From: Candidatus Atabeyarchaeum deiterrae
GTDB taxonomy: Archaea > Asgardarchaeota > Atabeyarchaeia > Atabeyarchaeales > Atabeyarchaeaceae
Assembly (NCBI GenBank): GCA_037310415.1
Contig: CP147780.1
Span: forward strand, 584,701-648,700
Direction: 5' to 3'
Length of the DNA: 64,000 nt
Shown here: in pieces, positions 8,622 through 29,144 of the stretch
How positions within the stretch are numbered: the first letter of the stretch is position 1
Layout: each line of letters opens with the position of its first letter
Notes under the pieces: generated by a model
Seen by the model: the letters and a program-made list of their open reading frames with translations, nothing else
Databases searched by the model: none
Told to the model about the DNA's origin: nothing
Position numbers and translations under genes: made by a program

Positions 8622-8623
8622 GG

Positions 8624-8743
8624 TTACTTGTAGCAATTAGCCTTACGCGCATCACCAATAGTCTTAGGATCGCACCTCTTCATTTCACTCTCAGGAAACA
8701 CCGAAAGAAGCTCCCAAGCCAAATCAAGAGTCTGATCAATGCT
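8624..8743 (-). pseudogene. Displaced atpB 3' end (copy B), 38 codons plus stop
   Basis: Reads [39 protein letters not shown]-stop. By hand alignment, 91 of 117 nt are identical to atpB 27600-27716, including a perfect 21-nt block at 8723-8743. Confidence 0.8.
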
Positions 8744-8868
8744 TAGAGGAGTCCGCTTGCTATTTGCGTGAAGCGCGTATCTCAACAACTTCGCAGAGAT
8801 CCAATCGATGTCAACCTTTGAATTTCAACAATTCTGAAGATCTGAGCAACGCATGCCAAAAAAAGACA

Positions 8869-9435
8869 TTAGGGCTTCTTCACTTCACGGTGTATCCACC
8901 AGACGAGCCCAATAACGATAGGAATTCCGAAAACAATTGCCGTCCAGACCAGTATCGTGATAATTGAGTCTACAACATAGTTCAGAGTCCAAGTAGCAAT
9001 GGCAACGTTCCAGTTTCCATCGATAAAGACCTTGATGCAGAACGCAATGAAGAGCAACAGCGGTATTCCACTTCCACCCCTTCTTGCACGTGAGCGTTTA
9101 CCGGAGAGGTGATATTCTCTCTTCTCCTTACTAGGCAGCCTTCTCCACCATAGCCAACCCGCCACTCCACCTACGACCGCAGGGACCCCAATAAAAAGAA
9201 GCTCCCAGAAAACCAAATACAAAATGAAAGTCACTACGTTCCCCATTGTCCAAAGACCCAAAGCCACAGGTACCAGGCCTGTCGACAGAGCACTCCCAAC
9301 GAACCATAAGAAGACATAAACTGCACCCACAAATGCTAGAATACCTGCTATCACAAATACGACAACTATGCCCCAATGTTTTCCCAGGAATTTCCTCCGA
9401 GCATCTGAACCACTTTCAGACTCAGTTCCTGACAT
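8869..9435 (-). CDS. Multi-pass membrane protein, unknown function
   Basis: 188-aa ORF with five to six hydrophobic helices separated by a basic loop (KEKREYHLSGKRSRARRGG). It is the only gene between atpB copies B and C. Confidence 0.5.
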   Translation of the reverse strand: MSGTESESGSDARRKFLGKHWGIVVVFVIAGILAFVGAVYVFLWFVGSALSTGLVPVALGLWTMGNVVTFILYLVFWELLFIGVPAVVGGVAGWLWWRRLPSKEKREYHLSGKRSRARRGGSGIPLLLFIAFCIKVFIDGNWNVAIATWTLNYVVDSIITILVWTAIVFGIPIVIGLVWWIHREVKKP

Positions 9436-9534
9436 CCTGAATCTCCTCTTCCTTCAAAACCAGAACAATTACAGTACTTGAATATGTGCCAAATATATAA
9501 GCATTGACATCGCGTGCGCCATTACGTACGAGCG

Positions 9535-9617
9535 ATTAGCTTTCCGCGCAGCCTCAATAGTCTTCGGATCACACCGCTTCATCTCACCCCCAGGAAACAC
9601 AGATAACGACTCCCAAG
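9535..9617 (-). pseudogene. atpB 3'-end relic (copy C)
   Basis: Reads [28 protein letters not shown], colinear with the atpB C-terminus. About 83 nt, same orientation as the other copies. Confidence 0.7.
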
Positions 9618-9718
9618 ATTCACATCCCAGTCGTGCGCTGGGCACGGATCACTTCTTTTGAAGCATCGACGGAATAGAAGATTTAAGAAGGACGGATGGC
9701 ACTGCTTACAGTGGCTGG

Positions 9719-10573
9719 GTGGGAGCGGACACCAGACTTCAAAAGATGGTGTTTCAGATGAAAAGAACAATGAGAATATTCATGCCAATTGTTTTTGTCC
9801 TTGCAGTTGTAATGATTGCGCCTATTTTCCTTTCATTTTACTATCCAGTGTTTCAAAATATCTTCGTCGCGTATTGGAGCCTAGTCGCTACTATCATACT
9901 GGTTGGTTTGACCGCATGGTACTCTATTATGACAAGCGAGACATTGGCTGAGACTAGAAAGGAGAGAATGCGACCAACACTTGCCCACGTAGTGAGCAAA
10001 GCACTACCCCTCTTGATAGATGACCTTGACAGGGAGATCGCTTCCAAGAACTACGACTACCACAATGATCCGCCGTACTTTCACACCCTAGACCCCGAAG
10101 CCCACGTCGAGAACGAAAACGTAATGGAGAAGTTTTTCATGCAGAAGCTGCTCAAAGAGTATCCTCGAACAGCCTTGCTCGTCAAAGACCACAATGAACT
10201 TGTAACTAAACTGAAGAAATCATACGAGGAAATCTTCAAGTCACTATACACAGAGGACTTCAAAACGACCATCCAAAAGGCTATAGACGAATACAACAAA
10301 ACTGCGGAGAAACCCATTGACCACACCCCGGAAAGCTACGCAATAGAGTTGATAAACTACTCCGATGAATTCATGATGAGCCTCACGGCAGACGCATTTA
10401 TGTTTTACAGAGCAAAGAAAGACGTCTTGAAGGAGTTTCTGGTGCGGGAAGAAGTTCAAGAGAAGATAAAAACTCGTGATGAGATCTCCTCGAAACTCAA
10501 GGAAAGTGCAAGAGAACTGAAAGAAGAGTTTGAGAAGATACAGAGAACATTGGCGGAGGAATATCTGTTGTAG
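9719..10573 (+). CDS. Membrane-anchored coiled-coil protein, unknown function
   Basis: Two N-terminal TM helices, then a K/E-rich helical region. The start is more likely the Met at about 9758. Confidence 0.5.
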   Translation: MGADTRLQKMVFQMKRTMRIFMPIVFVLAVVMIAPIFLSFYYPVFQNIFVAYWSLVATIILVGLTAWYSIMTSETLAETRKERMRPTLAHVVSKALPLLIDDLDREIASKNYDYHNDPPYFHTLDPEAHVENENVMEKFFMQKLLKEYPRTALLVKDHNELVTKLKKSYEEIFKSLYTEDFKTTIQKAIDEYNKTAEKPIDHTPESYAIELINYSDEFMMSLTADAFMFYRAKKDVLKEFLVREEVQEKIKTRDEISSKLKESARELKEEFEKIQRTLAEEYLL

Positions 10574-10809
10574 TCTTCGTGGATCCCGGTCAGAAGTCAT
10601 TTCATCTCCTTTCCTCTTGAAGTTCTCAAAGGAAAATCGCAATAGCAAACGGAGTGCGATGAAATGGAATCAAGGAGGCATCCTATTGAAACACTAGACT
10701 GTCCTTCAGGAAGTCACATTGACCCGATCAACAAGGCGAGCTAGGCTGTTGCGGACTGAGACATATACTCATACCTTGTTAGAGGCTTCTCTACGTTGTG
10801 AGTTGAGTG

Positions 10810-11697
10810 TTATCTTGAAGCTTTTCGCGGTTTCTGCGCTGGGTCGACGTGGATGACACAATGATGACACTCTGTCTCACGACTGACTTTGTCATGGACG
10901 TCTTCGGAAATCCTGTCTGCCTCTTCTATCGGGGTGCCTCTTGCCACTTCTATGTGGAAACCTGTGTGGACTATGTTTGGTCCGACATACTCGGCTATTA
11001 GATCATGGACGCCGAGTACCCCCTCGACTGATTTCGCAGTTGACTCTATTTTTCTCATGAATTGCTTGTTCGGTGCTCTGCCAACGAGGTAGCGGAAGTT
11101 GTCTTTGAAGAGGTATACGCCGCCTATGACGATTATTGCACCTATAATCATGGATGCTATTGCATCTGCTAGATAGTATCCTTGCGAAACTAGGTACACG
11201 CCTATCAAGGAAGGAACATAGGAGATCTCGTCTTTCACGAGTTGGACTAGCCCTGCTTTTGACGAAGCGCCTCTTTGCTTTACCCTCAGAATGCCAATCA
11301 TCGGAATTGCTAACACGAGCATGGATACTAAGATCGCTATCAGGCCGAGGCTGACGTTTTGGAGCGCACTGGATTCGGGTTGCAGAAACTTGTCGATAGA
11401 CTGACGGAAGACTTCGAGACCCATGAAAGATATGAAAATTACGGATGAGACGAGTGCCGCGACATTCTGTGTTCTTCCGCGACCAAACATGTAGAATTCA
11501 TCCGCTGGCTTCTTTGACCAGTATAGAGAAAGAAGAAGGAAGGCAGACACCAGTACGTCGCCGAGCACCTCCAACGCTTGCGCGAACAACACGAGGATGC
11601 TTGTCATAAAGTATGTCAGAAGTTGTAGAACAAAAATGATGGTGTAAGCTACGAAAGTGATTCTCAGGCCACGTGTTTCCCCGGCGTGTTCTGTCAT
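10810..11697 (-). CDS. Cation diffusion facilitator (CDF) family metal efflux transporter
   Basis: Six TM helices with LGDVLVS and ADAIASMIIG motifs, plus a C-terminal cytoplasmic domain (VHDLIAEYVGPNIVHTGFHIEV). Confidence 0.85.
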   Translation of the reverse strand: MTEHAGETRGLRITFVAYTIIFVLQLLTYFMTSILVLFAQALEVLGDVLVSAFLLLSLYWSKKPADEFYMFGRGRTQNVAALVSSVIFISFMGLEVFRQSIDKFLQPESSALQNVSLGLIAILVSMLVLAIPMIGILRVKQRGASSKAGLVQLVKDEISYVPSLIGVYLVSQGYYLADAIASMIIGAIIVIGGVYLFKDNFRYLVGRAPNKQFMRKIESTAKSVEGVLGVHDLIAEYVGPNIVHTGFHIEVARGTPIEEADRISEDVHDKVSRETECHHCVIHVDPAQKPRKASR

Positions 11698-11727
11698 TTG
11701 AGTCGTCCATCCGTCTATGACGCGTAG

Positions 11728-12303
11728 CTAGTGTTTGTGTTCGCTGGCTTTTTGTTCGCCGTGTTCGTGTTCGCCCATCGTTTCTCCTTCTTCGTGTTCT
11801 CCTTTGCCTGTTATGGATGTGTAGATGTGGTGTGAGAACAGCTCGAATCCAAGCATTGCTTTGATGTACTTCCTGGCGGCTACTACGTCATTTGGATCGT
11901 AGTCCTTTTTGGACATGGCGTCACTAAACTTCTCTTGCAGCACCTCTTCAACGGTATGTTGGAGGAATTCTATTACTTCTCTTGGGTTTCCTGTTTCGAT
12001 TGCTTTTTCTGCACGCGGAACTACTGGGCCCCAATCGAGTCCTGCTGGTTTCAGCCCAGTGTATGATGCTCCTTCTCCTGCTCTGTGCAAGCGCACTGCT
12101 GTTTCAAAGAACCAGTAGTCTGCAACCTCTTTTGCTTCCTTGCCTTGTTTTCTCGCTCGCAGTGTTTTCTCAAAAGCCTTCTTTAACTCTTCTTCCCCTT
12201 CTTTCGGCAGATAGGGAAGTATGAGTTTGACATTACCTTTCTCTAAGGCGCTAGTTGCGGCCTTAACGACGGGTCCATCTAATGTATCGCAATGTGGGGG
12301 CAT
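11728..12303 (-). CDS. Conserved hypothetical protein with His/Glu-rich tail (DUF6448-like)
   Basis: MPPHCDTLDGPVV start. The C-terminal tail GEHEEGETMGEHEHGEQKASEHKH suggests metal binding. Adjacent to the CDF gene. Confidence 0.5.
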   Translation of the reverse strand: MPPHCDTLDGPVVKAATSALEKGNVKLILPYLPKEGEEELKKAFEKTLRARKQGKEAKEVADYWFFETAVRLHRAGEGASYTGLKPAGLDWGPVVPRAEKAIETGNPREVIEFLQHTVEEVLQEKFSDAMSKKDYDPNDVVAARKYIKAMLGFELFSHHIYTSITGKGEHEEGETMGEHEHGEQKASEHKH

Positions 12304-12439
12304 CCCACTCGTTCACCTCCGCAGCATGAACAGGTTCCCTTCCTAATATTCTTGACTCTTATAATGGAATAAAGGGTCCGCTTCGTTTTCAGTTTTTGCA
12401 TCTTATATAGAATGGGGGTGTGATGACCTTGCAGATGGA

Positions 12440-15400
12440 TAGGGAAGGTAGCAGGAGACTGGTTTCGCGTGCTTCTGGAGGACATCCTCTATAACTTGCT
12501 TGTTTTCTTTGTTGGGATACCTGTTGCGGTTCTCTTTTTGTTGCTGGTTTTGTGTATTGCTTTCAAGTCTGCTCGCGGGTCCGTTTCTCACCTCGCTCGG
12601 TGGATGCTTCACGGCTTGGGGGTCTTGACACCGTACATGATCGTGGTGGTATTTGCGCTTGGTGTTGGAATTGCATGTTTCCATGTGCTGGTGTTTAGCA
12701 GTGAGTTGGTGAGGTTAACTCTCAGTTGTGCTGTTACTCTTTTGGTGTCTTACTCGATTCTCGCCTTGGCTGTGATGCATGCTAGGTGGTCGTCGAGTTT
12801 GGTAAAGTTCGTCGCGTTCTCATGTTTCTTCGTTATATTGATGGATGTTCTTGTTGGGTTTCTTGTGAGTGATGATTTGGTTCGGGTTTTGGCTTCTTGG
12901 GGTTCTTCTGTGTTTCTCGGGTGGCTTCTTCTCTATGAGAGGGATACTCTGAGGGCTTCAATGGGGTCCTTGAAACTAAGGATTAGGAAGCCTAAAGGTG
13001 ACGTGGAGCCTACATCTTTTGGCAATAGGGATCGTGAGTTGCCTGCAAATGGGAGCGGAGGAAGGAGTAGCGAGAGTGGGGGTTGTGAGGTTGGGTCAGT
13101 TGAGGTTGTCGGTATCCCTGAGAGTTACTTCTTCGGGAAGGTGGGGAATCGGAGAGACGGAGAAGCCGAGGGGTCCGGAGACGAAGATATTGCGGCTAGG
13201 TTTCGTGGATTCGCGGTGTCCCTGATTGAACATGGGTGCACCTTCGCGTTTAGCCAGGTTTACCATGGGGGTCGTGGGAGGTTCTTCATTCAGTGTAAGG
13301 AGCAAGATAGGTCTAAGCTTGCGCGGTTGGTGGAAGGTGTTGATGCATCTTTACATTCTTGGTTCCCCGATTTTGACACGAAGATACGCTACGGGGATGT
13401 TGAGTCTTCATTGGGTGGCGGGAGGCATGCTTGTGGTTGGGTTTCGAATCTGCCAGCTCCTTCGAGGAATCCTGTGAAGTATATTGCTGAGTTTTTTGTT
13501 CAGAGGAGGCTTACTGGTTCTGTGGTGGTGGTTGCTGAGGGGAGCACATCTTCTCTTTCATCTTTCGTGAAGAGGGGGCGTTATGGGAGGTTGTCGGCTA
13601 AGGCTGCGAGGCAGGAGCAGCAGAGCCCCATCGTGGGAGTGCACAACAAATCCACTATTACCAGTCGATCGAGTTGGGGTGCTGAGAAGGAGTTGAAGCA
13701 TTTAGGGACCGAGCTTGAGAGGTTGGGTTCGAAGCTGCAGGCAAAGTGTTGGATTACACTGACATGTGAGAGCTCCACGAGTGAGGAGGCTGAGATGGAT
13801 CTGGATTTGGTGCTTAGGACATTTGTGGGGGCGTTTAGTTTTGAGGAGGAGCGCCATGAGATGCGTTTTGGGAAGTTTCCCAGGAGGCAGGCTGAGGTTG
13901 TTTACCGCGCTACATCCAAGTTGAGTCCCCGGGGTAGGAGTACGGTTTTGCTGCCTTCTGATTTGGCGTTGTATTTTTGGTTGCCTGAGATGGACTCGGT
14001 TGCTCGGGTGAAGAGGAAAGGCGGTTTCTTAGCTCCTACTGGAGAGGAGGTTGAAGGTGGGGAGATTCTACTTGGTGGGGTTCTTCGCCATGGGTGTGTG
14101 TCGGATGTTGAGGCTCGCCTCACGCTTGGTGATTTGGCTCGCCACTGTTTGGTTGTGGGTTCCACTGGGAGTGGAAAGACGTGGACGACATTGTCCATAG
14201 CGATGGCTTTGCATCGGCTTGGGGTTCCTTTTTTGGTGCTTGATCCTGTGAAGAAGGAGTATAGGTGTTTGGTTGGCGCTGTTCCTGGGTTGCGTGTCTT
14301 CACGGTTGGGGATGAGGGTGTTGCGCCTTTTCGCTTCAATATTCTTGAGGTTCCCTTTGGAGTTAAGGCGCAGAAGCATGTTGACTTGGTGGAGGATGCT
14401 TTGTGTGCTTCTATTGTGATGTATCCTCCTGCGCCCTATGTTTTGCACATGGCTTTGAATCGCACTTACAGGGAACATGGTTGGGACTTGACATATGGAG
14501 AACGTGGTGGAGCTGTGTCTTTGCGTGATTTGAGGCGGAGTGTGAGGGACGTTGTTGTCGAGGAGGGTTACGAGGGTGAGCCGAGAAGCACTATTATTGC
14601 GGCTTTGAATACTCGGTTTGAGAGTTTATCTGTAGGTGGTAAGGGAGCGGCCCTGTGCAGCAGGGTATCCATGTCTCCTCAAGAGTTGATTGCTAATCCG
14701 ACTGTGGTTGAGTTTGGTGAGATGGGGGCGCAGGAGGATCGCGCCATGGTTATCCTCATGGTGCTATCGTCCATCTACGAGTATCTGCAGACACTTGGAC
14801 CAACATCTAAGCCCAGGTGCGCCATCATATTGGAGGAGGCCGGCTCACTCTTCGGCAACGTTGGCGCTAAGGGTGGAGCAGAATACGATTCTAAGGAATC
14901 TAGGAGAAAGGCGATTGAGGTTATTTCACGCATTACCGCTGAGATTCGCTCCCTTGGTGGCATGATTATTTTTGTGAATCAAAGTGCAGTTGGCTTGCCG
15001 CTTGAGGTGACCGAGAATACTTCCACGAAGATTGTGCATCAGGTTGCGGATGATGAGGATGCGGAGAAGGTTGCACGCATGTTCGGGTTAAATGAGGAGC
15101 AAAAACGTGCGCTTGCGAGTCTGGAGGTTGGTAGGCCTGTTATTAAGACGCCAAATGTGAGTCACCCGTTTCAGGTTGAGGTAACTCCTGTGACGAGTTA
15201 TGGGGTTGACCCTACCAAGTTTGTTACGGATGAGGAGTTGAGGAGGTACATGAGGGCGACGTTCTATGATGCTAACCCGCAGTATCTTAAGGCGAGTGTG
15301 ATGACGCCCACTGAGAAGACGCCAACATCGGCTCCGAGTGTGACCGTTTCCGTTGTGAATGGAGGCAGGCTAGCTGAATCAATTGTAGCTCGGGCAGACT

Positions 15401-15680
15401 TTGAGGCAAAGTTTTGTAAATCTGTGGGGAGACATCACGAGGGTGAGGGTGTGAAGGCGGTTGTGAAGCTGCTTATTGCGGAGGCTTCAAGGTATACGCG
15501 GAAACGTAAGGAGGAGGAGACGCTTGCAATGGAGATCCTCAACAGAGCTAATGACAAGTACTGCGTGAACCTGAGACCGGAAGTACGCAGGAGAGTCAAC
15601 GTGTTGGTGAAGAGGGAACTGATGGCTGACCTGCAAACGGCTGGCGGCGTGAGATCTTCCTAGTTGGAGAGTTATATTAG
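12440..15680 (+). other. G+T-biased tract on the + strand (tract 1)
   Basis: Codons of the 1064-aa gene end overwhelmingly in G or T when read by eye. The flanking genes (11728-12303, 15689-17473) are compositionally ordinary. Confidence 0.6.
12469..15663 (+). CDS. Membrane-anchored HerA/FtsK-like P-loop ATPase
   Basis: About 150 aa of TM helices, Walker A VVGSTGSGKTWTT, Walker B AIILEEAGSLF. The C-terminal block FGLNEEQKRALASLEVGRPVIKTP is shared with the 1265-aa paralogue at 30993-34790. GTG start. Confidence 0.7.
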   Translation: MLLEDILYNLLVFFVGIPVAVLFLLLVLCIAFKSARGSVSHLARWMLHGLGVLTPYMIVVVFALGVGIACFHVLVFSSELVRLTLSCAVTLLVSYSILALAVMHARWSSSLVKFVAFSCFFVILMDVLVGFLVSDDLVRVLASWGSSVFLGWLLLYERDTLRASMGSLKLRIRKPKGDVEPTSFGNRDRELPANGSGGRSSESGGCEVGSVEVVGIPESYFFGKVGNRRDGEAEGSGDEDIAARFRGFAVSLIEHGCTFAFSQVYHGGRGRFFIQCKEQDRSKLARLVEGVDASLHSWFPDFDTKIRYGDVESSLGGGRHACGWVSNLPAPSRNPVKYIAEFFVQRRLTGSVVVVAEGSTSSLSSFVKRGRYGRLSAKAARQEQQSPIVGVHNKSTITSRSSWGAEKELKHLGTELERLGSKLQAKCWITLTCESSTSEEAEMDLDLVLRTFVGAFSFEEERHEMRFGKFPRRQAEVVYRATSKLSPRGRSTVLLPSDLALYFWLPEMDSVARVKRKGGFLAPTGEEVEGGEILLGGVLRHGCVSDVEARLTLGDLARHCLVVGSTGSGKTWTTLSIAMALHRLGVPFLVLDPVKKEYRCLVGAVPGLRVFTVGDEGVAPFRFNILEVPFGVKAQKHVDLVEDALCASIVMYPPAPYVLHMALNRTYREHGWDLTYGERGGAVSLRDLRRSVRDVVVEEGYEGEPRSTIIAALNTRFESLSVGGKGAALCSRVSMSPQELIANPTVVEFGEMGAQEDRAMVILMVLSSIYEYLQTLGPTSKPRCAIILEEAGSLFGNVGAKGGAEYDSKESRRKAIEVISRITAEIRSLGGMIIFVNQSAVGLPLEVTENTSTKIVHQVADDEDAEKVARMFGLNEEQKRALASLEVGRPVIKTPNVSHPFQVEVTPVTSYGVDPTKFVTDEELRRYMRATFYDANPQYLKASVMTPTEKTPTSAPSVTVSVVNGGRLAESIVARADFEAKFCKSVGRHHEGEGVKAVVKLLIAEASRYTRKRKEEETLAMEILNRANDKYCVNLRPEVRRRVNVLVKRELMADLQTAGGVRSS

Positions 15681-15688
15681 ATGGTGAT

Positions 15689-17473
15689 GTGGGTCGGGGA
15701 GGATTACTGTATTTGCCAAGGGAGTCTGAAGGGCACGAGCACGTAGAGGATGACGCAGAATCTTCCCTGGGTTCCGATGAACAGGAAGAAGGGAAATGGG
15801 GTGAACTTCGCGAAGAAGCTGAGTTGACGGATGAATCGGCCCTTAGGGAATACGAGGAATCGCTGACAAGTCAGCAAGGGGAGGGGGGAAGAGAAAAAGA
15901 TGCCTCAGAGACCGATGATGAGTCAGTCGCCGTGTCTGAGGAAGAGGAATGGAAGCAATTCGTGGATTCAACTCTCAACGAATATGAGAATTCATTGAAC
16001 GAATCGATAAGAAAAGATGAAGTGGTCAAGGCGACAGAATCACAGGAATCCAGTGCAAATGTGGAGCAAAGAAGCCAGACAACTGAAGGGGAACCCCAAC
16101 AAATCGATGAGCCCACTAAGCGAGCAGAAGTTCCATCAACCGAACCACGACAAGAACCCAACATGGATAGGGATAACGAAGCGGACGGAGTAAAGGTGAC
16201 TGATAAGGTCACGGTGAAATTCGATGAGAATGAGGGCCTTACAATAATCTCTGAGAACTTGAACTATAGGATCGCAACTGTGGAGCATGAGACTATAGGG
16301 GGATTGGAATTCGACAGGTACAAGACTAACATGGGAGAAGAGTTTCTACACATACCTAGTGAAAACAAGTTGATCCCACCCTATGAAACGCCATGGTACG
16401 CATTACGTCCAAACACCGAAGTATATCTTGACCTGAGCTACAAAACTGACCGATTGCTGGAGGCGATAAGCAAGGCGGGAGGAGAAGTGGCGTTTCGAAA
16501 GGAGATGAAGGAAAGGGGCGCAATCTTCAGCAACGGAAATGTATACAGGCATCTGCACCAGCAGAGAGACGGCTTGAGAGCCGACAAACTGATTTCAGTC
16601 CTCAAATTTCTGGGAAGGAATCTCGATGAGCCAAACAAACATATCAGAGCGATAGGACATTGCAGGGCAATAGAAAACCCAAAACTACCATTCAGACTCA
16701 ATAACAACGACGGAGCAAGATTGATGGGAGCAAGGTATTCAGACGGAACTAACTCTGCATCGAAGGGACGTGGACCAAGATTCAACTACGCGAACAATGA
16801 CGCAGGGCAAAGAAACAGGATCGTAGAATCCCTGAAGAATGTTTTCGGTGGGGCAAATATACTCAACAGAGAGTACAACACTGGTGAAGTGGCGAAAGTG
16901 CGTACTTCATCAGACATCGTTGGATATGTATTGATGAGAGCAGGAGCTGTGACAGGGGAAATAGTTGACAAGAACCCACACATACCTGTGCTAATACGGG
17001 AAGGGTCTTTGGAAATGAAACGCGAGTGGCTAATCCAAGCATCTGGTGATGAGGGATACGTCTGGCCACAGAAAGGCAAAGTGTGCATAGGAAGAGCGGT
17101 TGAAGCATCAAGCGTTCTGTCCAAGGAGATGACCGATCGCCTTGATGGAATGAGTTGGCAGGACAAGTTCATAAACAGGAGATTTGTCTGTGGCATAAGA
17201 CCATGCAAGGATCTCCCTGGCGACATCTACGGAGTGGTAGAAGGTCATCCACCTAACCTTCTTTTGGAAGAGAAGAAGATGCTCAGTCATTTTGATATTG
17301 AGGCACGAATGTATCCCATAGAGATGCACAGGGGAAAGTATGGCGACTACTCAGCCCACTGGACCCTACAGACAGAGACAAGGGAAGATGGAAGACGATT
17401 CGCCGAAAAGATCGGGTTCCCCCAAGAAAGAAAACAAAAGAAGGCAGTTTCAGTCCTAAGACTCGACAGGTGA
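15689..17473 (+). CDS. Acidic N-terminal region fused to a two-motif LAGLIDADG-fold domain
   Basis: The first ~165 aa are D/E-rich. The LAGLIDADG-like pair ARLMGARYSDGT and REWLIQASGDEGYV has typical spacing and intervening helices (IVESLKNVFG, LLLEEKKMLSHFDI). Lies 25 nt after the ATPase gene. Confidence 0.55.
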   Translation: MGRGGLLYLPRESEGHEHVEDDAESSLGSDEQEEGKWGELREEAELTDESALREYEESLTSQQGEGGREKDASETDDESVAVSEEEEWKQFVDSTLNEYENSLNESIRKDEVVKATESQESSANVEQRSQTTEGEPQQIDEPTKRAEVPSTEPRQEPNMDRDNEADGVKVTDKVTVKFDENEGLTIISENLNYRIATVEHETIGGLEFDRYKTNMGEEFLHIPSENKLIPPYETPWYALRPNTEVYLDLSYKTDRLLEAISKAGGEVAFRKEMKERGAIFSNGNVYRHLHQQRDGLRADKLISVLKFLGRNLDEPNKHIRAIGHCRAIENPKLPFRLNNNDGARLMGARYSDGTNSASKGRGPRFNYANNDAGQRNRIVESLKNVFGGANILNREYNTGEVAKVRTSSDIVGYVLMRAGAVTGEIVDKNPHIPVLIREGSLEMKREWLIQASGDEGYVWPQKGKVCIGRAVEASSVLSKEMTDRLDGMSWQDKFINRRFVCGIRPCKDLPGDIYGVVEGHPPNLLLEEKKMLSHFDIEARMYPIEMHRGKYGDYSAHWTLQTETREDGRRFAEKIGFPQERKQKKAVSVLRLDR

Positions 17474-17479
17474 GGAAGT

Positions 17480-17788
17480 ATGGTTGATGATAGAGAAATG
17501 GTAGAAATGATTAAGCAAGCATATGAAGAGCTAAAGACCCGAGATATTGGAAAAGAGGAACTACTCGATTGGCTGAAAAGAAACGGTCTGACACTGGAAC
17601 AGGCGTCAATGGCCATCCACCTAGCCATCCAACAGGGTTTAATCCGATTTTGTTACCCACCCTCTGTTTGCGGAGAAGAACCAGTTCCAAGTTACGAAAG
17701 GATCACAGAAGAAGATCTGCTCCCGCCTGAACTACTGGAAGAAATGCGTACAAGAATTTTCGAAGAGAGTGTAGAGCGACGAAAATGA
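17480..17788 (+). CDS. Small helical (possibly wHTH) protein
   Basis: 102-aa ORF starting 6 nt after the preceding gene. No recognisable motif. Confidence 0.4.
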   Translation: MVDDREMVEMIKQAYEELKTRDIGKEELLDWLKRNGLTLEQASMAIHLAIQQGLIRFCYPPSVCGEEPVPSYERITEEDLLPPELLEEMRTRIFEESVERRK

Positions 17789-18054
17789 GGAAGACATCAT
17801 CAAAGAAAACGATCCCAACAACAGTACGAAGAATTGAAGCCGATCAAGGTAAATCATGAGGGTATCGAGATGGTCAAAATCGGCGGTAACCAAACCAACA
17901 AAACAGACTTCAAAACTGTTGATAGTTCATAGGCCTAGCTGGTCGCTGTGCCATTCGCTTATACCTGACAGTTCTCAGATAGTCCTCCTATTTCAGTAAT
18001 TCTGTAAGCATAACTAATGCCCAAAGGGTATCTCTCGACAAGTTCCCTTTGGTT

Positions 18055-19314: not shown

Positions 19315-19318
19315 TAGT

Positions 19319-20329: not shown

Positions 20330-20332
20330 TTT

Positions 20333-21829: not shown

Positions 21830-22187
21830 GACCGAGATCGACCATTAAGCGCAACAAGATGCTTTCTTCGTTTCTGGGCACTCCGATTATTAGTTCAAAT
21901 CTCAGTCCGGATGTAGCCCCAACAATATTCGAATAGTCCAGCAGTTGCTCTCTAGTTCTTTCTGACAACAAGTCATCTCCAGTTTTTGCCTCGCCAATGC
22001 ATAGCACCTTGGTTTCCATGTTTATGCCAATTACATCTGGTCTGTGTCTACCTATCCTCGGGGGAACATGCACCGCTTCACCATGAAATGTGTAATACTG
22101 CCCATCATATGCGACTGGAGCATACCCCTCCTCCCGCATCTTTCTGCCTATTAGGTCAACAAGCATTCGGTGCATCCGCGATGGCAT
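21768..22187 (-). CDS. Small PD-(D/E)xK-like nuclease-fold protein
   Basis: 139 aa with RPDVIG ... CIGEAKT, matching the D...(D/E)xK pattern. No other domain. Confidence 0.5.
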   Translation of the reverse strand: MPSRMHRMLVDLIGRKMREEGYAPVAYDGQYYTFHGEAVHVPPRIGRHRPDVIGINMETKVLCIGEAKTGDDLLSERTREQLLDYSNIVGATSGLRFELIIGVPRNEESILLRLMVDLGLEKLTNVSYIVLPEELVETD

Positions 22188-22191
22188 GTCT

Positions 22192-23364
22192 TCAACTCAC
22201 TTCGAACTTCTTAAACATCTCTGCTATACTCGAAATTTGTTTATATAGCTCGAGAATCAGTTCCTTCTTCTTTGGCTCCTCGCCTGCAACAATGCTCCTT
22301 TCCTCTTCTCGTGACATGCTCTTGAGGCCTTCTATACACTTGTTCATGTGTTCGAACAGTCTCGAAGCATAAGCTGGCATAGACAGACTGAGCTCTTCTT
22401 TTGCGGCGGAGAAACCTTCCTCCTTCAGTACTTTGACAATCTCTTTGTTATCAAACATCTTCTTCAGATCTCGAACGTCTTGAGCACGCACGATCTCCCC
22501 GTTCCCAACCCAATCACAGAAGTCTTTGTCTTCAAGCTCGTGTTTCTTCATTCCATCTATGATCTTCTTGCTCTCGTATTCAACGAAATATGAAAACTTC
22601 GTGAATGGATTGTCTCTGCCTGTGTAGCTTGGCAAAAACTGTTCGGTCATGAGTTTGTATGCTTTTATCCATCTTCTGATGTCGACCAACGAAAGTTTCG
22701 TCGTATCCATAAGTCGCCGTTCGCTGTATCCCCTCTTGTCCCATAGTATGTACAGCATTCTGGCTCTCTCGTAGGCTTGCCAGTCATTCTGTGCGCGTAA
22801 ATGTGCTATGAGGCGGATGAAGTTTCTTGCGCGCTCATCGGTGCCCTCTGGAAGGATCCTTGCCTTGATCTTCGTGTATTCCTCTTTCCTTGGGTACTTG
22901 TCTCTTAATTCTCTGTAGATAATCACTCTTGTGTTGCCATCTATGCACAGATATTTCTCACCTTTCTTCATGACCCAGATCATTTCGACGGCGCCACCGC
23001 CAGCCTCGATGCTGCTCTTCAATCTGTTGTATGCGTCCACATTCTGCTGTTTCAAGAAATAGACCAGGGTTTTTTGATTTGTTGTCTGCCCCGCGCTAAG
23101 ATAGTTGTCTCTTGCGTATCCAATTCTGGGATTCTCTTCATCCAATTCGATCTCGTCTATGGGAATATCATCGATTTCGATCTCTTCTGGCACGCCATCG
23201 ATTGGAACTTCCATTTTGTACCGATCCTTTTCCTCCTTTCTCTCACTCGGCGCCAGAAGTACACTTTTGTCATCAATGTCTTCGGACAACTTGTCACACC
23301 TCTTCTCTACATTTACCCCCTCATGAAGTCGTGCGGTGAACCCCCAGTGAGTCTGGCAAGTCAA
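22192..23364 (-). CDS. ParB/Srx-fold protein, DGQHR-like (DGNTR variant), acidic N-terminus
   Basis: IELDEENPR box and YLCIDGNTRVIIY. The start may be the internal Met (MEVPIDG). First gene of the operon. Confidence 0.65.
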   Translation of the reverse strand: MTCQTHWGFTARLHEGVNVEKRCDKLSEDIDDKSVLLAPSERKEEKDRYKMEVPIDGVPEEIEIDDIPIDEIELDEENPRIGYARDNYLSAGQTTNQKTLVYFLKQQNVDAYNRLKSSIEAGGGAVEMIWVMKKGEKYLCIDGNTRVIIYRELRDKYPRKEEYTKIKARILPEGTDERARNFIRLIAHLRAQNDWQAYERARMLYILWDKRGYSERRLMDTTKLSLVDIRRWIKAYKLMTEQFLPSYTGRDNPFTKFSYFVEYESKKIIDGMKKHELEDKDFCDWVGNGEIVRAQDVRDLKKMFDNKEIVKVLKEEGFSAAKEELSLSMPAYASRLFEHMNKCIEGLKSMSREEERSIVAGEEPKKKELILELYKQISSIAEMFKKFEVS

Positions 23365-23602
23365 GCATTCTGGCAGTCCTTTTAGTGTGATCTTGCCAAA
23401 ACATGTCTATATAGATTACGTTACACTTGAGACATTCACAATCCTCAGAAGAGCCTCGCGCCAAATCTATTCTTAGCTGAAACCATTGCAGGGCGTGGGT
23501 TGAATGTCTCGTCGGTGGACCGATCATAGAATCAATAAAGAGACAGAGAGGATCAGGCGAGTCACGTACTTGTAGTGACCGACCCTGTGACTAGCCTCAT
23601 TA

Positions 23603-23652
23603 TCTTAGGATCGCACCTCTTCATCTTACCCTCAGGAAACACCCGACGACAA
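23603..23652 (-). pseudogene. atpB 3'-end relic (copy D)
   Basis: Reads VFPEGKMKRCDPK. About 40 nt core plus a degenerate extension with a 1-nt indel. Same orientation as copies A-C. Confidence 0.6.
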
Positions 23653-24104
23653 CTCTTAGTTCTGCCAACCATCCTTTCCTAAGACAGAATTGCATCAACT
23701 GGATGCAAGTGGTGAACTGCTTGTGTAGAGAAGAGACAAAAAGATGTGTCGAAGTCATCCATACGCTAGGCGCCGATGCTCAGCGAGACATAATGTAGGA
23801 GCATCCTTTATGATCCGTCGATCTCAACGGAAACAACCTAGCATCAGAATCAATGAATTCGCAGAAATGAGTTCTGGACAGAAAGCTATATAGAAGGTAT
23901 TCTATAACAAATAATGACCGCGACGAATGAAAACAGACCAAAAAGAGAATAAAGAAGAAACAATATAGTAGCGCGACGAGCAGCCCAGTTGGTTTAAGCT
24001 CCGAATGGGGGTTAAAATGGGGAAATCAACAAAGAATTAGTGAAAACACACATAAATTAGACAGCTTTTCTTGATGAGAAGTAAGACAGAAAGGGGGTTT
24101 CGCA

Positions 24105-24524
24105 TTGGAAAGACTTCCCAACACTGAACTATTGGCATTAGTTGCAAGCTATCTCGGAACAATAGAAGGGCGAAAGCGCTTTCAAAAGATCGTGTTTCTC
24201 CTGAAGGAAGAGTCCGCGGTTCAATTCACCTATCCTTTCACTTCGTACCTTTACGGTCCCTACTCTTCAAGACTCCAAGATGACATCGACATCCTCGTAC
24301 GAACTGGCAATCTACAGGAAGAAAAGGCTGGTTCTCTTTTCCGCTACAAGATTACCGACCTGGGACGCAAGAATGCTCATCAAATAGAGAGGACATACAG
24401 GCAGCATCTCGCGAAAGATCTACGTGGCCACCTGAAAGACTTACAGCAACAGGACACCGAGGAATTGGTGAACCGATCGAAAAGAATAATGAACAAGAAA
24501 ATCAAACACAACATTTTCGCTTAA
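24105..24524 (+). CDS. wHTH protein, possibly Panacea/SocA (DUF4065)-like
   Basis: KRFQKIVFLLKEE and YLYGPYSSRLQDDIDILVRTG resemble the DUF4065 pattern (from memory). TTG start after GGGGG. Lies 11 nt upstream of the HD gene. Confidence 0.45.
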   Translation: MERLPNTELLALVASYLGTIEGRKRFQKIVFLLKEESAVQFTYPFTSYLYGPYSSRLQDDIDILVRTGNLQEEKAGSLFRYKITDLGRKNAHQIERTYRQHLAKDLRGHLKDLQQQDTEELVNRSKRIMNKKIKHNIFA

Positions 24525-24535
24525 GGCGAGAAGCA

Positions 24536-25870
24536 ATGTTTTGTGACCCTGAACTCAAGATCAGCATCCCATATGAATACGTAAAAGATCCAATTTATGG
24601 CTATATTAGAGTTTATGAGCACGAGCACAAGATCATCGATACCGAGTCGTTCCAGAGACTTAGACGTATAAAACAGCTAGCCGCGGCGCACTATGTATAT
24701 CCAGGTGCGACACACACACGCTTCTCTCACAGCTTGGGCGTAATGCACCTTTCAGGGCTCTTCGTCAAGCAGTTGCTTGAGTCCTGCAAGAATGAGATTC
24801 CAGATGATACTTTTTTGCGCTATTTCTTCTTAATGAGGCTATGGGGTCTCACCCATGATTTGGGACATGGACCCTACTCTCATACTTTTGACAAAGCGGT
24901 GCTTGAACATATGGGGATAAATCATGAATACATGTCCTCGAAGATTGTCGTGGATGACAATATTATTGCAGAAACCATAGAAAAAGATCTTAGCGACTAC
25001 GACATAAGACCTAAAACACTGTCAGAATACTTGGGTAAGACCCGAGAAGAATGGCCAAAGGGAGAGAAACTAGGTAACACACAACACAATGAATCATCCT
25101 TCTATTACGTACTGAAAGGATCTTATAGCACTGACATTATTGATTACTTGCTCAGAGACAATCTCTATACTGGCGCAGGGTATGGAAACTTCGACTGGCA
25201 ACGATTGATCTTATCTTCATGTCTACACGGCGATGAGGTTGCTCTAGACGTTAGAGCTCGTGATACGTTGGACGCTCTCTTGCTTTCGAGATTATTCTCT
25301 TTCAACACAATCTATTACCATAGATGGTCGAGAGCCGCGGATCACGTAATGAGAGTTTTCTTATCAAAAGCAAACAAGAAAATCGATCTGGCTGACTATG
25401 CCAACGATGTCGAGGAATATAAGAAGCTGGACGAGGAAAGCATTCTCCAAATGAGAGAACTCACTGACATCCCCGAGCGAAAAATGTTGCTTGACAGGGA
25501 AATACCCTTCAGAGAGATTGACAGACGCAAGATCCAGCTCTCCTCTGACATAGCGATTCTGGATGAAGATAACTTGAACTCTAAGCTCTCCGAGACATTG
25601 GAAAGCAGAATCCCTAGTGAAGCGTACTTTGTGGATACACCGAATTTGCCTTTGAACCCAATGAGGGATGAGGACGTCTGTATTGTTGACCACTCATCAT
25701 CGCCAACCGCGGTATGGCACGAGCCTGTCAGGAAAACATCTTGGGGAGAAGTACCTTACTCCGTTTGGATAGTACGACTATACCTAGACAAAAAATATGA
25801 AAAGAATGAGGAAGATGTAAAAAGGGCGTTTCAGGATGCTATCACAGGTAAGAAGGGATCACACTTCTGA
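24536..25870 (+). CDS. HD-domain phosphohydrolase, SAMHD1/dNTPase-like (COG1078-type), island copy
   Basis: HTRFSHSLGVMHL and THDLGHGPYSH motifs. Paralogue of 50396-51679. Confidence 0.8.
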   Translation: MFCDPELKISIPYEYVKDPIYGYIRVYEHEHKIIDTESFQRLRRIKQLAAAHYVYPGATHTRFSHSLGVMHLSGLFVKQLLESCKNEIPDDTFLRYFFLMRLWGLTHDLGHGPYSHTFDKAVLEHMGINHEYMSSKIVVDDNIIAETIEKDLSDYDIRPKTLSEYLGKTREEWPKGEKLGNTQHNESSFYYVLKGSYSTDIIDYLLRDNLYTGAGYGNFDWQRLILSSCLHGDEVALDVRARDTLDALLLSRLFSFNTIYYHRWSRAADHVMRVFLSKANKKIDLADYANDVEEYKKLDEESILQMRELTDIPERKMLLDREIPFREIDRRKIQLSSDIAILDEDNLNSKLSETLESRIPSEAYFVDTPNLPLNPMRDEDVCIVDHSSSPTAVWHEPVRKTSWGEVPYSVWIVRLYLDKKYEKNEEDVKRAFQDAITGKKGSHF

Positions 25871-26566
25871 ATTAGGCCCCTTTTGGTCATGCGACGGTTC
25901 TAATGGTTTTTCTTCTTCATAAACTAGTTATGTAGGAACTGATGTTGATTCAAAGATTCTTGATCTACATCGTTGCCAGTTTTCACTTGTCAAGGAGCTT
26001 CGCAATAGTTCATCCTATCCGTTACTTGGGAATTGACCCTATAAGAGCGTGATTCTCGAACTCGCTAAACCTCGTGAGTATGGACGGTTCTGAACGTTTG
26101 AGAAGTGTGTGAATGCCAGATTTCATATACAGGGTAGCGGAGAGCTCAGTGAAAAAACATGTCGAATAAGAACGTCTGTTAACGCCCTAACCTAAGGTTA
26201 TAGAAAAGGCTATGCAGAAGGAAAATCGAATTCTTATCATGGTCACCCTTGGCAACTAGGGAGAATAGAAATAACAATGAACAAAGACAAGGGAAATTAG
26301 AGGAAACCATGAGTCCCTGGTGACCTTCCCTACGAGCACCATCGATGTACTCAGAATCCAAGAGAGAAGGTTAAGCGGTTGAGGACGCAGGACTATCGGG
26401 CGCCTCTCTCAGGGCTTTCTGCAAAAATGGTATAGGATGAACAGCCACGAATCGAGTAGTAGAAGAAGGCAAGATAAGTATGAGACTATTAATAATATCC
26501 ACGGAGTAGCAGGATTAGTGTGCGGTTGCGCAGGTTGTGATTGATCTATATTGATGGATTCTTCAT

Positions 26567-27352
26567 ATGCATGATTTTCTAAGGGTGGTTTTGTTGAGAA
26601 TGACTAAGCGGAAACATGTAGTAATCGTAGATACAGGATTTAGGCGACTGATTTATCCCTTGGATTCCTCGTTCATAAAGGATTTGGATCCAAAGCGTGT
26701 TAATAGTTGGATTGAGACTGGTTGGAGTATAGACAAGACTGTCATGCTTGAAATAGATTATCCAACCATTCCAGAATATCGTAGTCCTGAAGGCTCAGTC
26801 GCCTCGAACATATTCTCAGGCATAATATATGCATGGAACACGGGTAAATACTACAGGATAGTCACTTTTAGCAAGAGATATTTTGAAGAAGTCGACGAAT
26901 TTAACAGGAAAGTTGAAGTGTATCATGAGGGGCTTCATTTGAGAAGCTATGAGGACTCTCTGCTTACTGGCTCAAGACCTTTGACAGAAGACGATGTTGC
27001 AAGGGCAGAGGTAGAATATGTTAGAAAGACTTATGGTAATGAGGGGTTTGCTGCAAGGGGGAGACACATATTGACTAATGAAGAAGAGTTCAAGAAAGCT
27101 GATGCGATAGCGGGGGTTGTCGCTCTCCTATGGCTCAGAGAATACTTCGAGGAGGAGCAGGCAAGGTACAGCCCGGTATCTTTCTCCATCCCGTCAAATA
27201 GTGAGTTTGTCAACTCCATCAGAAAGACGCACTATTCGATGATGATTCAACCTGTTACAGCATTTTACAGAGCAGCATTCAACCTTGATCCGTCATTGAT
27301 CTTTAGACACTGTTTGAAGAAGATAAACCTGCGCAACGATTCTCCAGAGTGA
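26567..27352 (+). CDS. Hypothetical protein with HExxH motif (possible zinc metallopeptidase)
   Basis: 261-aa ORF. A single HEGLH motif is the only clue. Confidence 0.4.
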   Translation: MHDFLRVVLLRMTKRKHVVIVDTGFRRLIYPLDSSFIKDLDPKRVNSWIETGWSIDKTVMLEIDYPTIPEYRSPEGSVASNIFSGIIYAWNTGKYYRIVTFSKRYFEEVDEFNRKVEVYHEGLHLRSYEDSLLTGSRPLTEDDVARAEVEYVRKTYGNEGFAARGRHILTNEEEFKKADAIAGVVALLWLREYFEEEQARYSPVSFSIPSNSEFVNSIRKTHYSMMIQPVTAFYRAAFNLDPSLIFRHCLKKINLRNDSPE

Positions 27353-27572
27353 GGACCGAATTGCAGAAGGCGATACCGAAAGAAATGATAGAGCCTTTAA
27401 GAGCCAAGTATGAGAGCGAATGGCAGGAAGAGTGGGAGAAGGCAGTTCTAAGGATTATGCTGTTCACTTAATTCCTGTAGAATATGCACTAAATTACGCC
27501 CTACGGGAATACAACACAGACACACCTCGCAGGAAGGCCAAAAAAGAAGGGTCAGACAGCCAAAAAAGAGGA

Positions 27573-29075
27573 CTACGCAGTTGCTGACTGGGACATGTGC
27601 TTATACCTGTTCGCTTTCCTCGCAGCGTCAAGGGTCTTAGGGTCGCACCGCTTCATCTCACCCTCAGGAAACACAGACAACAAATCCCAGGCGAGATCAA
27701 GAGTCTGATCAATGCTACGATCCACATATTCACCTTGAGTGATAAACTTCCGCTCAAACGTATCAGCAAACTTCAAATACGCCTTATCCCGATCACTCAA
27801 AGCCTCCTCACCAATCACAGCAACTAAATCCCTGAAATCCATACCCTCACTAAAAGCATAATACAACTGATCCGACACTTCCCTATGATCCTCACGCGTC
27901 AACCTTTCTCCAGATTTTGTCACACCGATCCCCTCCTTCATCAACCGACTCAAAGACGGACGCGGGTCGATCGGGGGGTATATACCCTTGTGATGGAGAG
28001 CCTCAGAAATAATGAGCTGTCCCTCAGTAATATACCCAGTAAGATCTGGAACGGGGTGTGTGATATCAGAATGCGGCATCGTCAAGACTGGCATTTGTGT
28101 TATTGTGCCTTTTCTGCCTATTATGCGTCCTGCTCTTTCGTATATGCTGGCGAGGTCTGTGTAGAGGTATCCTGGGTATCCTCTTCTTCCTGGGACTTCT
28201 TCTCTTGCTGCGCTGATTTCTCGTAGGGCTTCTGCGTAGTTTGTCATGTCTGTTAGGATGGCTAGGACGTGTAGGTTTTGTGTGTATGCTAGGTATTCTG
28301 CTGTTGTTAGGGCGCATCGGGGTGTTATGATGCGTTCTATTGCTGGGTCGTCTGCGAGGTTTAGGAATAGGACTGTGCGTTCGAGTGCGCCTGTTCGTTC
28401 GAAGTCTTTGCGGAAGTATTGTGCTTCTTCTGCTGTTATGCCCATGGCTGCGAATACTACGGCGAATTGTTCTTCTTTGCCGAGTACTTTTGCTTGGCGT
28501 GCTATTTGTGCGGCTATGCGGTTGTGTGGTAGTCCTGCTCCGCTGAAGAGTGGTAGTTTTTGTCCGCGTACGAGTGTGTTCATTCCGTCTATGGTGCTGA
28601 TTCCTGTTTGGATGAATTCTCGGGGGTATGCTCGTGCTTCGGGGTTTATTGGGCTGCCGTTTATGTCCCACATGTCTTCGGGTATGATTGGTGGTCCGTT
28701 GTCTATGGGTTCGCCTGAGCCGTCTAGGGTTCTGCCGAGTATGTCGGTTGTTACTGGGATTTTTAGTGGTTCGCCTGTGAATTGTGCTTGTGTGTTTTTG
28801 GTGTCGAGTCCTGTTGTGCCTTCGAAGACTTGGACGATGGCTTTGGTTTTGGTGATTTCTAGGACTGTGCCTCTTCTTTTTTCTCCGTCTGGTGTGGTTA
28901 TGTTGACGAGTTCGTTGTATCCTACGCCTTGGACGTTTTGGATGATGATTAGTGGTCCTGTTACGTCTGAGATGGTTTTGTAGGTTCTTTTGGCGTAGAG
29001 TGCTGCTGCGGCGATGTGGGCGGCTGTGGCTGTTTTGGTGGCGCTTTCTTGTTTTTGTTGTTTGGTTGTTGCCAT
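27573..29075 (-). CDS. atpB: A-type (archaeal V-type) ATP synthase subunit B
   Basis: Colinear AtpB sequence ([73 protein letters not shown]). Has a 28-aa T/K/Q/A-rich N-terminal extension. Confidence 0.95.
27600..27716 (-). repeat. atpB 3'-end copy A (functional gene end; putative att-like site)
   Basis: Homologous to copies B, C and D. The shared core of about 40 nt encodes [13 protein letters not shown]. Confidence 0.7.
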
Positions 29076-29132
29076 GGGTGTGTTCTCCGTGTTGTTGTTT
29101 GAGGTGGTTGGGGTTTGGTTGATTGTGTGTGT

Positions 29133-29144
29133 CTTATAATTTTT
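29133..29144 (-). promoter_or_regulatory. Candidate TATA box upstream of atpB
   Basis: CTTATAATTTTT is one of very few A-containing patches kept in an otherwise A/C-purged spacer. It lies 58-69 nt upstream of the atpB ATG. Confidence 0.3.

Follow-up and report, generated by a model that had tools for sequence, protein, structure and literature searches.

The atpB repeat array

We analyzed a 64-kb stretch of DNA (hereafter the window; contig CP147780.1, positions 584,701 to 648,700) from Candidatus Atabeyarchaeum deiterrae, which belongs to a lineage of wetland Asgard archaea with published complete genomes (PMC11291895, PMC11529989). In this window, the 3' end of atpB, the gene for subunit B of the A/V-type ATP synthase, is present in seven same-strand copies or fragments, all on the minus strand and downstream of atpB. 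Together they form an array of 25.9 kb (1847-27716) that is divided into six units of ~3.9, 12.7, 1.1, 0.8, 2.7, and 3.7 kb, which we call cassettes (Table 1). A sequence-only reading of this DNA had placed four direct copies here, all on the minus strand and in the same orientation (A at 27600-27716, D at 23603-23652, C at 9535-9617, and B at 8624-8743), and these positions stand. The same reading had drawn three units (0.8, 14, and 3.9 kb) over 19 kb, and this outline had to be replaced: we located copies E and F and fragment G with tblastn, using the C-terminal peptide, and with nhmmer profiles built from the copies. Copy D had been taken for a stub of ~13 codons carrying a 1-nt indel; the indel is real (a 1-nt deletion after the shared core), but the copy is full-length and decayed. 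With nhmmer, no more copies of the atpB end were detected elsewhere in the window or in the 10 kb that adjoin it on the left in a Logan contig of this strain (74 kb altogether).

Every copy includes the stop codon and the T-rich tract of the gene, and the 5' limit of atpB homology varies among copies. They have in common a core of ~28-40 nt that encodes 12 residues and reads about ...TTTCCTGAGGGTGAGATGAAGCGGTGYGAYCCTAAGA...; its 28-nt form can be written degenerately as TGAGGGTGAGTTGAAGCGGTGTGATCCT. A search with the 40-nt core returned four matches at ≤3 mismatches compared to 0.00 expected (100 shuffles), in line with the shared core of ~40 nt that had been proposed by hand. The core is not a dispersed repeat, the outcome that the sequence-only reading had named beforehand as speaking against it; its copies are confined downstream of atpB. 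The repeats are 60-165 nt long and only 75%-87% identical to each other. Copies A and B, for example, are identical at 91 of 117 nt (78%), exactly as first aligned, and include a perfect 21-nt block (8723-8743 = 27696-27716) just upstream of which the similarity ends.

The divergence between copies is mostly synonymous, as had been noted for A and B. Between these two, 14 codon changes are synonymous and six are non-synonymous; in a related contig from ENA (L083), the corresponding numbers are 18 and three between copies 0 and 1, and 15 and zero between copies 0 and 4. Differences between displaced and working ends gather at third codon positions, and the divergence equals that of true orthologs between genomes. 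Because the divergence is mostly synonymous, each displaced end was once functional rather than a decayed local duplicate. The displaced ends evolved under selection as working atpB ends, either in other lineages or on mobile cassettes that restore the gene. The synonymous pattern thus supports insertion in which the gene end is replaced, and it supports transfer of cassettes from one diverged host to another. A local origin, in which the gene end was duplicated in tandem and then decayed neutrally, and chance resemblance have nothing in their favor beyond the existence of repeats, and they are effectively ruled out by the zero chance matches expected, the third-position differences, and the unrelated units between copies. 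Copy F, the most distal end, may be the oldest because the His codon after RYK (AAGCAyATGTCC) is common to copies F and A.

The arrangement is not restricted to the window. The closest AtpB proteins are 85%-89% identical, are labelled Njordarchaeota, and belong to Njord/Atabeya-like relatives; we found the same layout downstream of atpB in four related genomes (five with the window). L083 has five extra direct copies that bound units of 0.8-3.5 kb, the JGI contig L085 has one or more extra copies, and the complete genome of A. deiterrae group 1 (L143; Atabeya-1, CP147779.1) has at least four, separated by genes that include those for a ParE toxin and a DpnII-type restriction-modification pair. 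Several small contigs carry isolated displaced atpB ends. The cargo is nearly all different from genome to genome. Fragment G of the window is 89% identical over 38 nt (blastn) to the end of L083 copy 4. Among ~120 other archaeal atpB loci, all have a single end with the sole exception of L125 (Ga0209536_100198169), which carries an isolated 80-codon AtpB C-terminal fragment (642-881), 65% identical to that of the window, without an atpB body and with unrelated neighbors. This fragment may represent an end displaced from atpB in a lineage that is more distant.

Junction modules and cassette cargo

Two kinds of module recur where cargo meets a displaced atpB end. The boundary motif of the first (arm family 1), CTTCTTAAATCTTCTATTCC, marks the exact start of a conserved junction module upstream of copies C and F. 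It matches twice in the window compared to zero expected, and it is never found in inverted orientation. Family 1 stands at four junctions in three genomes (copies C and F of the window, copy 4 of L083, and copy 1 of L085). At these junctions, homology outside atpB starts exactly at CTTCTTAAATCTTCTAT and continues into the atpB-like part, and the adjoining cargo is unrelated each time. The first cargo gene is always oriented away from the motif, which on that strand has a TATA-like ATTTAAGA; the motif could serve as a promoter, as an arm bound by protein, or as both. The second module (family 2; …TTTTGGCAGATYGGTTTCT…GGTTTAAC) occurs twice in Atabeya-1, and atpB homology begins inside the core at TGAGGGTGAG.

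Of these two family-2 junctions, one retains just 28 nt of atpB sequence. A remnant of this length is too short for easy homologous recombination and is typical of a recombinase core; therefore, we counted it in favor of site-specific recombination. Reused, precisely bounded arms together with a minimal 28-nt core look like the traces expected of a site-specific system. Likewise, copies that reach through the stop codon and the T-rich tract with a variable 5' boundary have the look that would be expected of attR-type (right attachment site) junctions. We also folded nine modules as single-stranded DNA in search of attC-like hairpins and obtained z-scores from -0.95 to +2.2, i.e., no significant folding, and a search for the Yucahu attachment motif AATTAACTTAT showed it to be absent.

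We annotated the cargo by searching the open reading frames (ORFs) against Pfam, NCBIfam, and PADLOC, with some proteins judged by eye (Table 1). The cassettes carry accessory genes, the majority of which match defense, toxin-antitoxin, or immunity families, and the units between copies share no relationship to each other. Their genes are mixed in orientation, some units are multi-gene, and some genes apparently have their own promoter-like motif. In cassette 2, the gene for a nuclease-like protein of 139 amino acids (aa) overlaps the start of the SNF2 helicase gene, and the pair resembles a split ZorD-type helicase-nuclease. The HD and HD_assoc_2 domain pair of the dGTPase-like protein in cassette 1 is also present in a gene outside the array (50396-51679). 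No known RNA family was found in the island with Rfam, and no repeat array of atpA ends was found between atpA and atpB.

Table 1. Coordinates of the atpB repeats, boundary motifs, cassettes, and composition block in the window
Feature	Position	Strand	Evidence or remark
atpB, A/V-type ATP synthase subunit B, anchor gene	27573-29075	-	Pfam ATP-synt_ab, ATP-synt_VA_C, ATP-synt_ab_N
Copy A, working atpB end (last ~40-55 codons) with stop codon and T-rich tract	27552-27716	-	nhmmer E 1.4e-42
Copy D, displaced end, full-length but decayed	23521-23685	-	nhmmer E 2.5e-24, profile positions 12-159
Fragment G, extreme tail of atpB end only (roughly ...RYKYMSQSATA-stop)	10721-10787	-	nhmmer E 0.006; blastn
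Copy C, displaced end	9480-9643	-	nhmmer E 6e-30
Copy B, displaced end, reading frame and stop intact (coding part 8624-8743)	8581-8743	-	nhmmer E 2e-36
Copy E, decayed displaced end, in-frame stop within core	5754-5897	-	tblastn; nhmmer E 1.7e-20
Copy F, most distal atpB end	1847-2014	-	nhmmer E 5e-23
Family-1 boundary motif upstream of copy C	9671-9690	-	
Second family-1 boundary motif, upstream of copy F	2036-2055	-	pattern match and alignment
Cassette 1, three genes	23686-27551		Pfam, PADLOC
LmuC/PDC-M19A-like protein, 139 aa	24105-24524	+	Pfam/PADLOC
HD/dGTPase-like protein, 444 aa	24536-25870	+	Pfam/PADLOC
Protein with HExxH motif, 261 aa	26567-27352	+	translation
Cassette 2, 12.7 kb (also a 419-aa protein, a DUF6448 protein, and a CDF transporter)	10788-23520		Pfam, PADLOC
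PD-Lambda-5_A-like paralogs (two)	22192-23364 and 19319-20329		PADLOC/Pfam
139-aa protein, nuclease-like by eye	21768-22187	-	PD-(D/E)xK-like motif (GEAKTGDD)
SNF2 helicase, ZorD/DpdE-like	20333-21829		
LAGLIDADG homing-endonuclease-like protein, 594 aa, free-standing	15689-17473	+	
HerA-like ATPase, 1064 aa	12469-15663		
Cassette 3, 1.1 kb	9644-10720		
284-aa protein, membrane/coiled-coil-like	9719-10573	+	by eye; no family match
Cassette 4, 0.8 kb	8744-9479		
188-aa protein, membrane-like	8869-9435	-	by eye
Cassette 5, 2.7 kb	5898-8580		
AbiEi	6982-7830	+	Pfam
AbiEii	7827-8621	+	Pfam
Fer4_16 protein	5889-6860	-	Pfam
Cassette 6, 3.7 kb (also a 304-aa protein without assigned family and an M20 peptidase)	2015-5753		Pfam
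Imm5-like protein	2700-3173	-	Pfam
Zn-ribbon protein, 129 aa	2129-2518	+	Pfam
A/C-only block	28085-29500, extending to ~32700		atpB-sense strand (-) almost without G or T at neutral sites

Mechanism of insertion and the search for an enzyme

We looked for the enzyme that inserts the cassettes at several levels. Pfam searches of all large ORFs of the window returned no tyrosine or serine recombinase, transposase, or Cas1, and NCBIfam and PADLOC returned no integrase-type families among the island ORFs. Six-frame translations of the 13 island gaps held no integrase gene or fragment. These searches uphold the failure of the sequence-only reading to recognize any recombinase. In the arrays of the relatives, precomputed Pfam annotation likewise listed no recombinase. 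Searches for the core outside the chromosomes were also negative: two scans of viral contigs and a first pattern run on JGI metagenomes yielded nothing, and a second JGI pattern yielded 43 contigs, all with ordinary Asgard atpB except L085, L113 (a Njord-like atpB end), and the L125 fragment. The junction motifs had only chance matches in viral contigs, none with an atpB core nearby.

One site-specific endonuclease-like gene, overlooked in the sequence-only reading, does lie within the island. By sequence, the 594-aa protein encoded at 15689-17473 has only a marginal Pfam match (LAGLIDADG_3, E 0.087). It belongs to a family of 23 members, all of this lineage, with several paralogs per genome and some with an N-terminal helix-turn-helix. 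An AlphaFold2 model built from the family alignment (predicted local distance difference test, pLDDT, 90.3; predicted template-modeling score, pTM, 0.89) has two alpha-beta-beta-alpha-beta-beta-alpha domains with LAGLIDADG helices, as in homing endonucleases, and Foldseek matched it to the TliVMA intein endonuclease, PI-PfuI, PI-SceI, and I-DmoI (for I-DmoI, template-modeling score 0.68-0.70 and E about 3e-5). Each of the two LAGLIDADG helices terminates in an acidic catalytic residue (D352 and E455), and both residues are invariant in the family. The protein is therefore a candidate site-specific nuclease and the sole candidate for a site-specific DNA-cleaving enzyme found in the array. The atpB array of Atabeya-1 has a 57% identical homolog in its first cassette, and another Atabeya-1 paralog (L267, CP147779.1 1017148-1038623; 6106-11476) lies 250 nt downstream of an intein-bearing nrdD in the same orientation. 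A spot beside an intein-bearing gene is a classic homing-endonuclease neighborhood. We looked for a duplication of the nrdD end beside this paralog and found none. The endonuclease-like gene of the array is absent from the L083, L085, L113, and L144 stretches.

The array records serial Campbell-type insertion with replacement and displacement of the gene end, by cassettes that encode no recombinase. Repeated insertion at the atpB 3' end had been proposed by the sequence-only reading, and the retained stop codon and T-rich tract, the variable 5' boundary, the synonymous divergence, and the like arrays of relatives bear it out. We propose, with a probability of about 0.45, that non-autonomous cassettes have been inserted serially at a lineage-wide atpB hot spot by a recombinase supplied in trans. 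According to this proposal, the atpB 3' end would be an insertion hot spot throughout Atabeyarchaeia/Njord-like Asgard archaea, and cassettes of 0.8-14 kb with mostly accessory cargo (defense, restriction-modification, and toxin-antitoxin genes among it), presumably as circular intermediates, would be inserted one by one by Campbell-type recombination inside the ~28-40-nt core. An incoming cassette would bring an atpB-like end of its own that takes over as the end of the working gene, and the former end, stop codon and terminator included, would come to lie beyond the cassette. Since the core is retained in displaced ends, these might become targets in turn. The enzyme would not be encoded by the cassettes and would most likely be a site-specific recombinase acting in trans, e.g., one encoded by a provirus or an integrative plasmid that shares these hosts. 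Atabeyarchaeia genomes are reported, in one of the papers on this lineage, to carry tyrosine integrases and small integrated elements (the smallest 1.3 kb), and ten of these elements also exist in circular form (PMC11529989). Because of these reports, the reused arms, and the 28-nt core, we rank a recombinase in trans first, ahead of LAGLIDADG break-induced homing, homologous recombination alone, and decayed autonomous elements, in that order.

Several observations weigh against a recombinase in trans. Neither a cognate recombinase nor a free element bearing the core was found; viral contigs and JGI metagenomes yielded only atpB genes or chance matches. Read by eye, the core is without clear dyad symmetry around a 6-8-bp spacer, and the longest identical runs between neighboring copies lie at differing positions in the repeat, a pattern as compatible with variable crossovers or subsequent gene conversion as with a fixed crossover. 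Five Logan samples of the window's strain have identical gene order, with no presence/absence polymorphism or excision seen in the contigs. The variation in units that the sequence-only reading had looked to is complete between species and was not seen within this one strain. The empty site it had predicted, in which the atpB stop is followed directly by abiEii, was wrong, as AbiEi and AbiEii lie inside the array with copies E and F beyond them.

Among the other routes, homing could also dispense with an integrase, which was found nowhere. The LAGLIDADG endonuclease or a paralog would cut the core in the atpB end, and the break would be repaired from a donor array: the atpB body would pair with the donor's working end and the tail with the donor's displaced copy, so that the intervening cassette is copied in, and synonymous changes in the new end would guard against re-cutting. 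The high-confidence predicted fold with its invariant acidic residues, the homolog in the first Atabeya-1 cassette, and the small, lineage-restricted, multi-copy family with a member directly downstream of intein-bearing nrdD all speak for this route, as does the mostly synonymous divergence of gene ends. However, four of the related stretches lack the gene, the nrdD-linked paralog stands beside no gene-end duplication, and the gene itself lies 10 kb from atpB beside a HerA-like gene, where it could be a defense component or a selfish passenger. The model by itself leaves the junction with a 28-nt core unexplained and makes that core a putative target at most, and we consider homing unlikely. 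Homologous recombination alone would do without any dedicated enzyme: after one first duplication, RadA-dependent exchange between atpB-end repeats would loop cassettes out as circles or linear pieces that move between cells and re-insert at any atpB end. The length of the repeats (60-165 nt), their varying 5' boundaries, and the shifting positions of identical runs are all in keeping with this idea, as are mosaic copies (L083 copies 1 and 3 have a 10-residue segment in common and differ in their tails) and genes for RadA and a RadA paralog encoded nearby in the window. It appears improbable nevertheless, since copies that are 75%-87% identical are a poor substrate, one junction has a mere 28-nt core, and junction modules are reused precisely beside unrelated cargo in different genomes; neither the choice of this one gene end nor the joining of new cargo to it is explained.

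The units might instead descend from autonomous integrative elements (plasmids or viruses), as the sequence-only reading had implied, each with its own atpB-targeting integrase and all integrase genes since lost. Nested direct repeats of a target-gene end are indeed the classical footprint of tyrosine integrases in tandem and are known in archaea (PMC6563490). Yet more than 20 cassettes in five genomes contain no integrase gene or fragment, six-frame gap translations included, and no replication or virion genes, and many units, at 0.8-1.6 kb and with no more than two small genes, are too small for autonomy; we regard this origin as more doubtful still than homologous recombination.

We compared the array with known systems. 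Tandem integrated elements at the 3' ends of archaeal tRNA or protein-coding genes (SSV/pNOB8-type integrase elements and the thaumarchaeal cryptic elements, PMC6563490) resemble it in that direct repeats of the target end flank the units, incoming DNA restores the end, and the site is reused. The flanking repeats and the restored gene end are those of tyrosine-integrase elements, but the units here have no integrase, many are a single small gene, and an atpB target is unreported in the literature we found. The sequence-only reading had called a protein-coding target unusual for archaea, which does not hold: 14 of 68 thaumarchaeal cryptic integrated elements lie in protein-coding gene ends, and tandem arrays are known, so that neither feature is exceptional (PMC6563490). 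What is unusual is atpB as the target, the integron-like run of tiny cargo-only units, and a lineage-wide hot spot without a recombinase in cis. Like an integron, the array is one-sided, with short, few-gene cassettes, a recurrent module at their ends, a fixed platform, and accessory or defense cargo. Unlike an integron, it has no intI beside the platform, its repeats are gene-end copies rather than hairpin-forming attC sites, and its cassettes are not co-oriented promoterless single genes, given their mixed orientation, multi-gene units, and promoter-like motifs. A casposon finds no match either, with no Cas1 and a boundary motif that is never inverted.

Closer in organization are the integrase-less mobilizable islands of bacteria, i.e., the cis-mobilizable elements (CIMEs) of streptococci, mobilizable islands that borrow the integrase of an integrative and conjugative element, and cargo-only tycheposon satellites of Prochlorococcus, all with a known helper. 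Here too, cargo-only units bounded by attachment-type repeats accumulate beside one conserved gene, with an enzyme that would be encoded elsewhere. The host here is an Asgard archaeon instead, and no helper was found in viral contigs or JGI metagenomes. T-even phages offer a recombinase-free parallel in the "intronless homing" of their free-standing seg and mob endonuclease genes. A LAGLIDADG-like gene near conserved essential genes (atpB, nrdD) is a shared feature, and mobility by break repair may be possible in both; the classical form, however, neither duplicates the end of its target gene nor builds multi-cassette arrays, and cleavage of atpB here is hypothetical. As a speculative extension that we think has little chance of being right, the atpB end could be the platform of an integrase-free archaeal analog of integrons, in which cassettes between copies of an essential gene's end are captured and exchanged when site-specific breaks, made by the array-borne LAGLIDADG family or another enzyme, are repaired, and the A/C block described below would be the mutational scar of recurrent single-stranded DNA intermediates.

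No closer relatives of eukaryotes are known than the Asgard archaea, whose mobile DNA has hardly been charted. The locus is a conserved, lineage-wide hot spot for turnover of defense and accessory genes beside an essential gene. The core and the two junction modules provide a defined sequence for tracing the missing enzyme, the LAGLIDADG-like protein is a candidate endonuclease that the locus itself offers, and the array is a ready marker for gene flow between Atabeyarchaeia populations. We found no published account of integration at atpB or of the A/C-only block. Neither of the two Atabeyarchaeia papers mentions atpB or ATP synthase as an insertion site in its main text, and one of the two "defense islands" in these papers may overlap the atpB array (PMC11291895, PMC11529989).

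The composition switch in atpB and its neighborhood

The body of atpB shows an abrupt switch in base composition. From codon 1 to ~330, ~98% of third positions are A or C: Leu is encoded only by CTA or CTC (25 codons), Lys only by AAA, and Glu only by GAA. At codon ~331 the gene flips to G/T-rich, and from codons ~335 to 500 only 0%-30% of third positions are A or C. The switch takes place within about ten codons in 6/6 related atpB genes and in 0 of ~110 other archaeal atpB genes, and the same composition block is present at L083 3300-4450, L084 8400-11000, L085 2400-4800, and L143 2100-4500. In the window, the same bias is shared by the spacer that precedes atpB and by the 3' half of a HerA-like gene, and the oppositely oriented C13 peptidase gene carries the complementary bias; thus the bias is a property of the DNA strand and not of the mRNA. 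It is clade-specific, strand-specific, and made of transitions only. Such a pattern would be expected from saturating C>T and A>G changes that affect the plus strand on the right side of ~28085 and the minus strand on its left side. Its polarity would fit an origin, divergent transcription, or strand displacement starting from ~28085, and is opposite to that of break resection. If mutational, the anomaly is among the strongest local strand asymmetries in a cellular gene of which we are aware, and it may point to an unrecognized DNA transaction at the site. We could draw no mechanistic link between the A/C block and the cassettes. We had also considered low synonymous codon identity in the 3' third of atpB as evidence of recombination, and dropped it because the A/C-only rule dictates most codons in the 5' part and so inflates identity there.

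Blocks of this kind are rare: within ~150 kb examined, the only others are in a second HerA-like gene (12.5-14.4 kb) and in one 300-nt window at ~9.1-9.4 kb in the array. The former, in the 1064-aa HerA-like gene of cassette 2, has a strong keto skew (12500-14400; plus strand G/T-rich, third-position A/C 0.25), so that both main extreme skew blocks in the window involve giant HerA-like ATPase genes.

The neighbors of atpB in the window, the HerA-like and C13 peptidase-like genes, vary between genomes. A 1265-aa HerA/DUF87-like ATPase gene (30993-34790, minus strand), with a weak NCBIfam match to the DNA translocase CedD, lies between atpA (34928-36724) and atpB. L084 and Atabeya-1 have conserved it, L085 has a truncated version, and L083 lacks it. 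Between it and atpB lies a gene for a 451-aa peptidase C13 (legumain/caspase-fold)-like protein (29495-30850, plus strand) that is absent from L083, L084, L085, and L143. No other ATP synthase subunit genes are nearby, and the operon is therefore split in this lineage.

The sole Rfam match in the window is a tRNA gene outside the island (107 nt, 38960-39066, minus strand), presumably intron-bearing and missed by ARAGORN, with no partial tRNA copies or island beside it. Farther along, genes for the PolD small subunit (54008-55618), Orc1/Cdc6 (55633-56886, minus strand), and ParA/ParB (58951-60550) are grouped, and the keto skew changes sign near 58.3 kb. The region 54008-60550 is probably the chromosomal replication origin, ~30 kb from the atpB array, and the skew there is far weaker than that of the atpB block.

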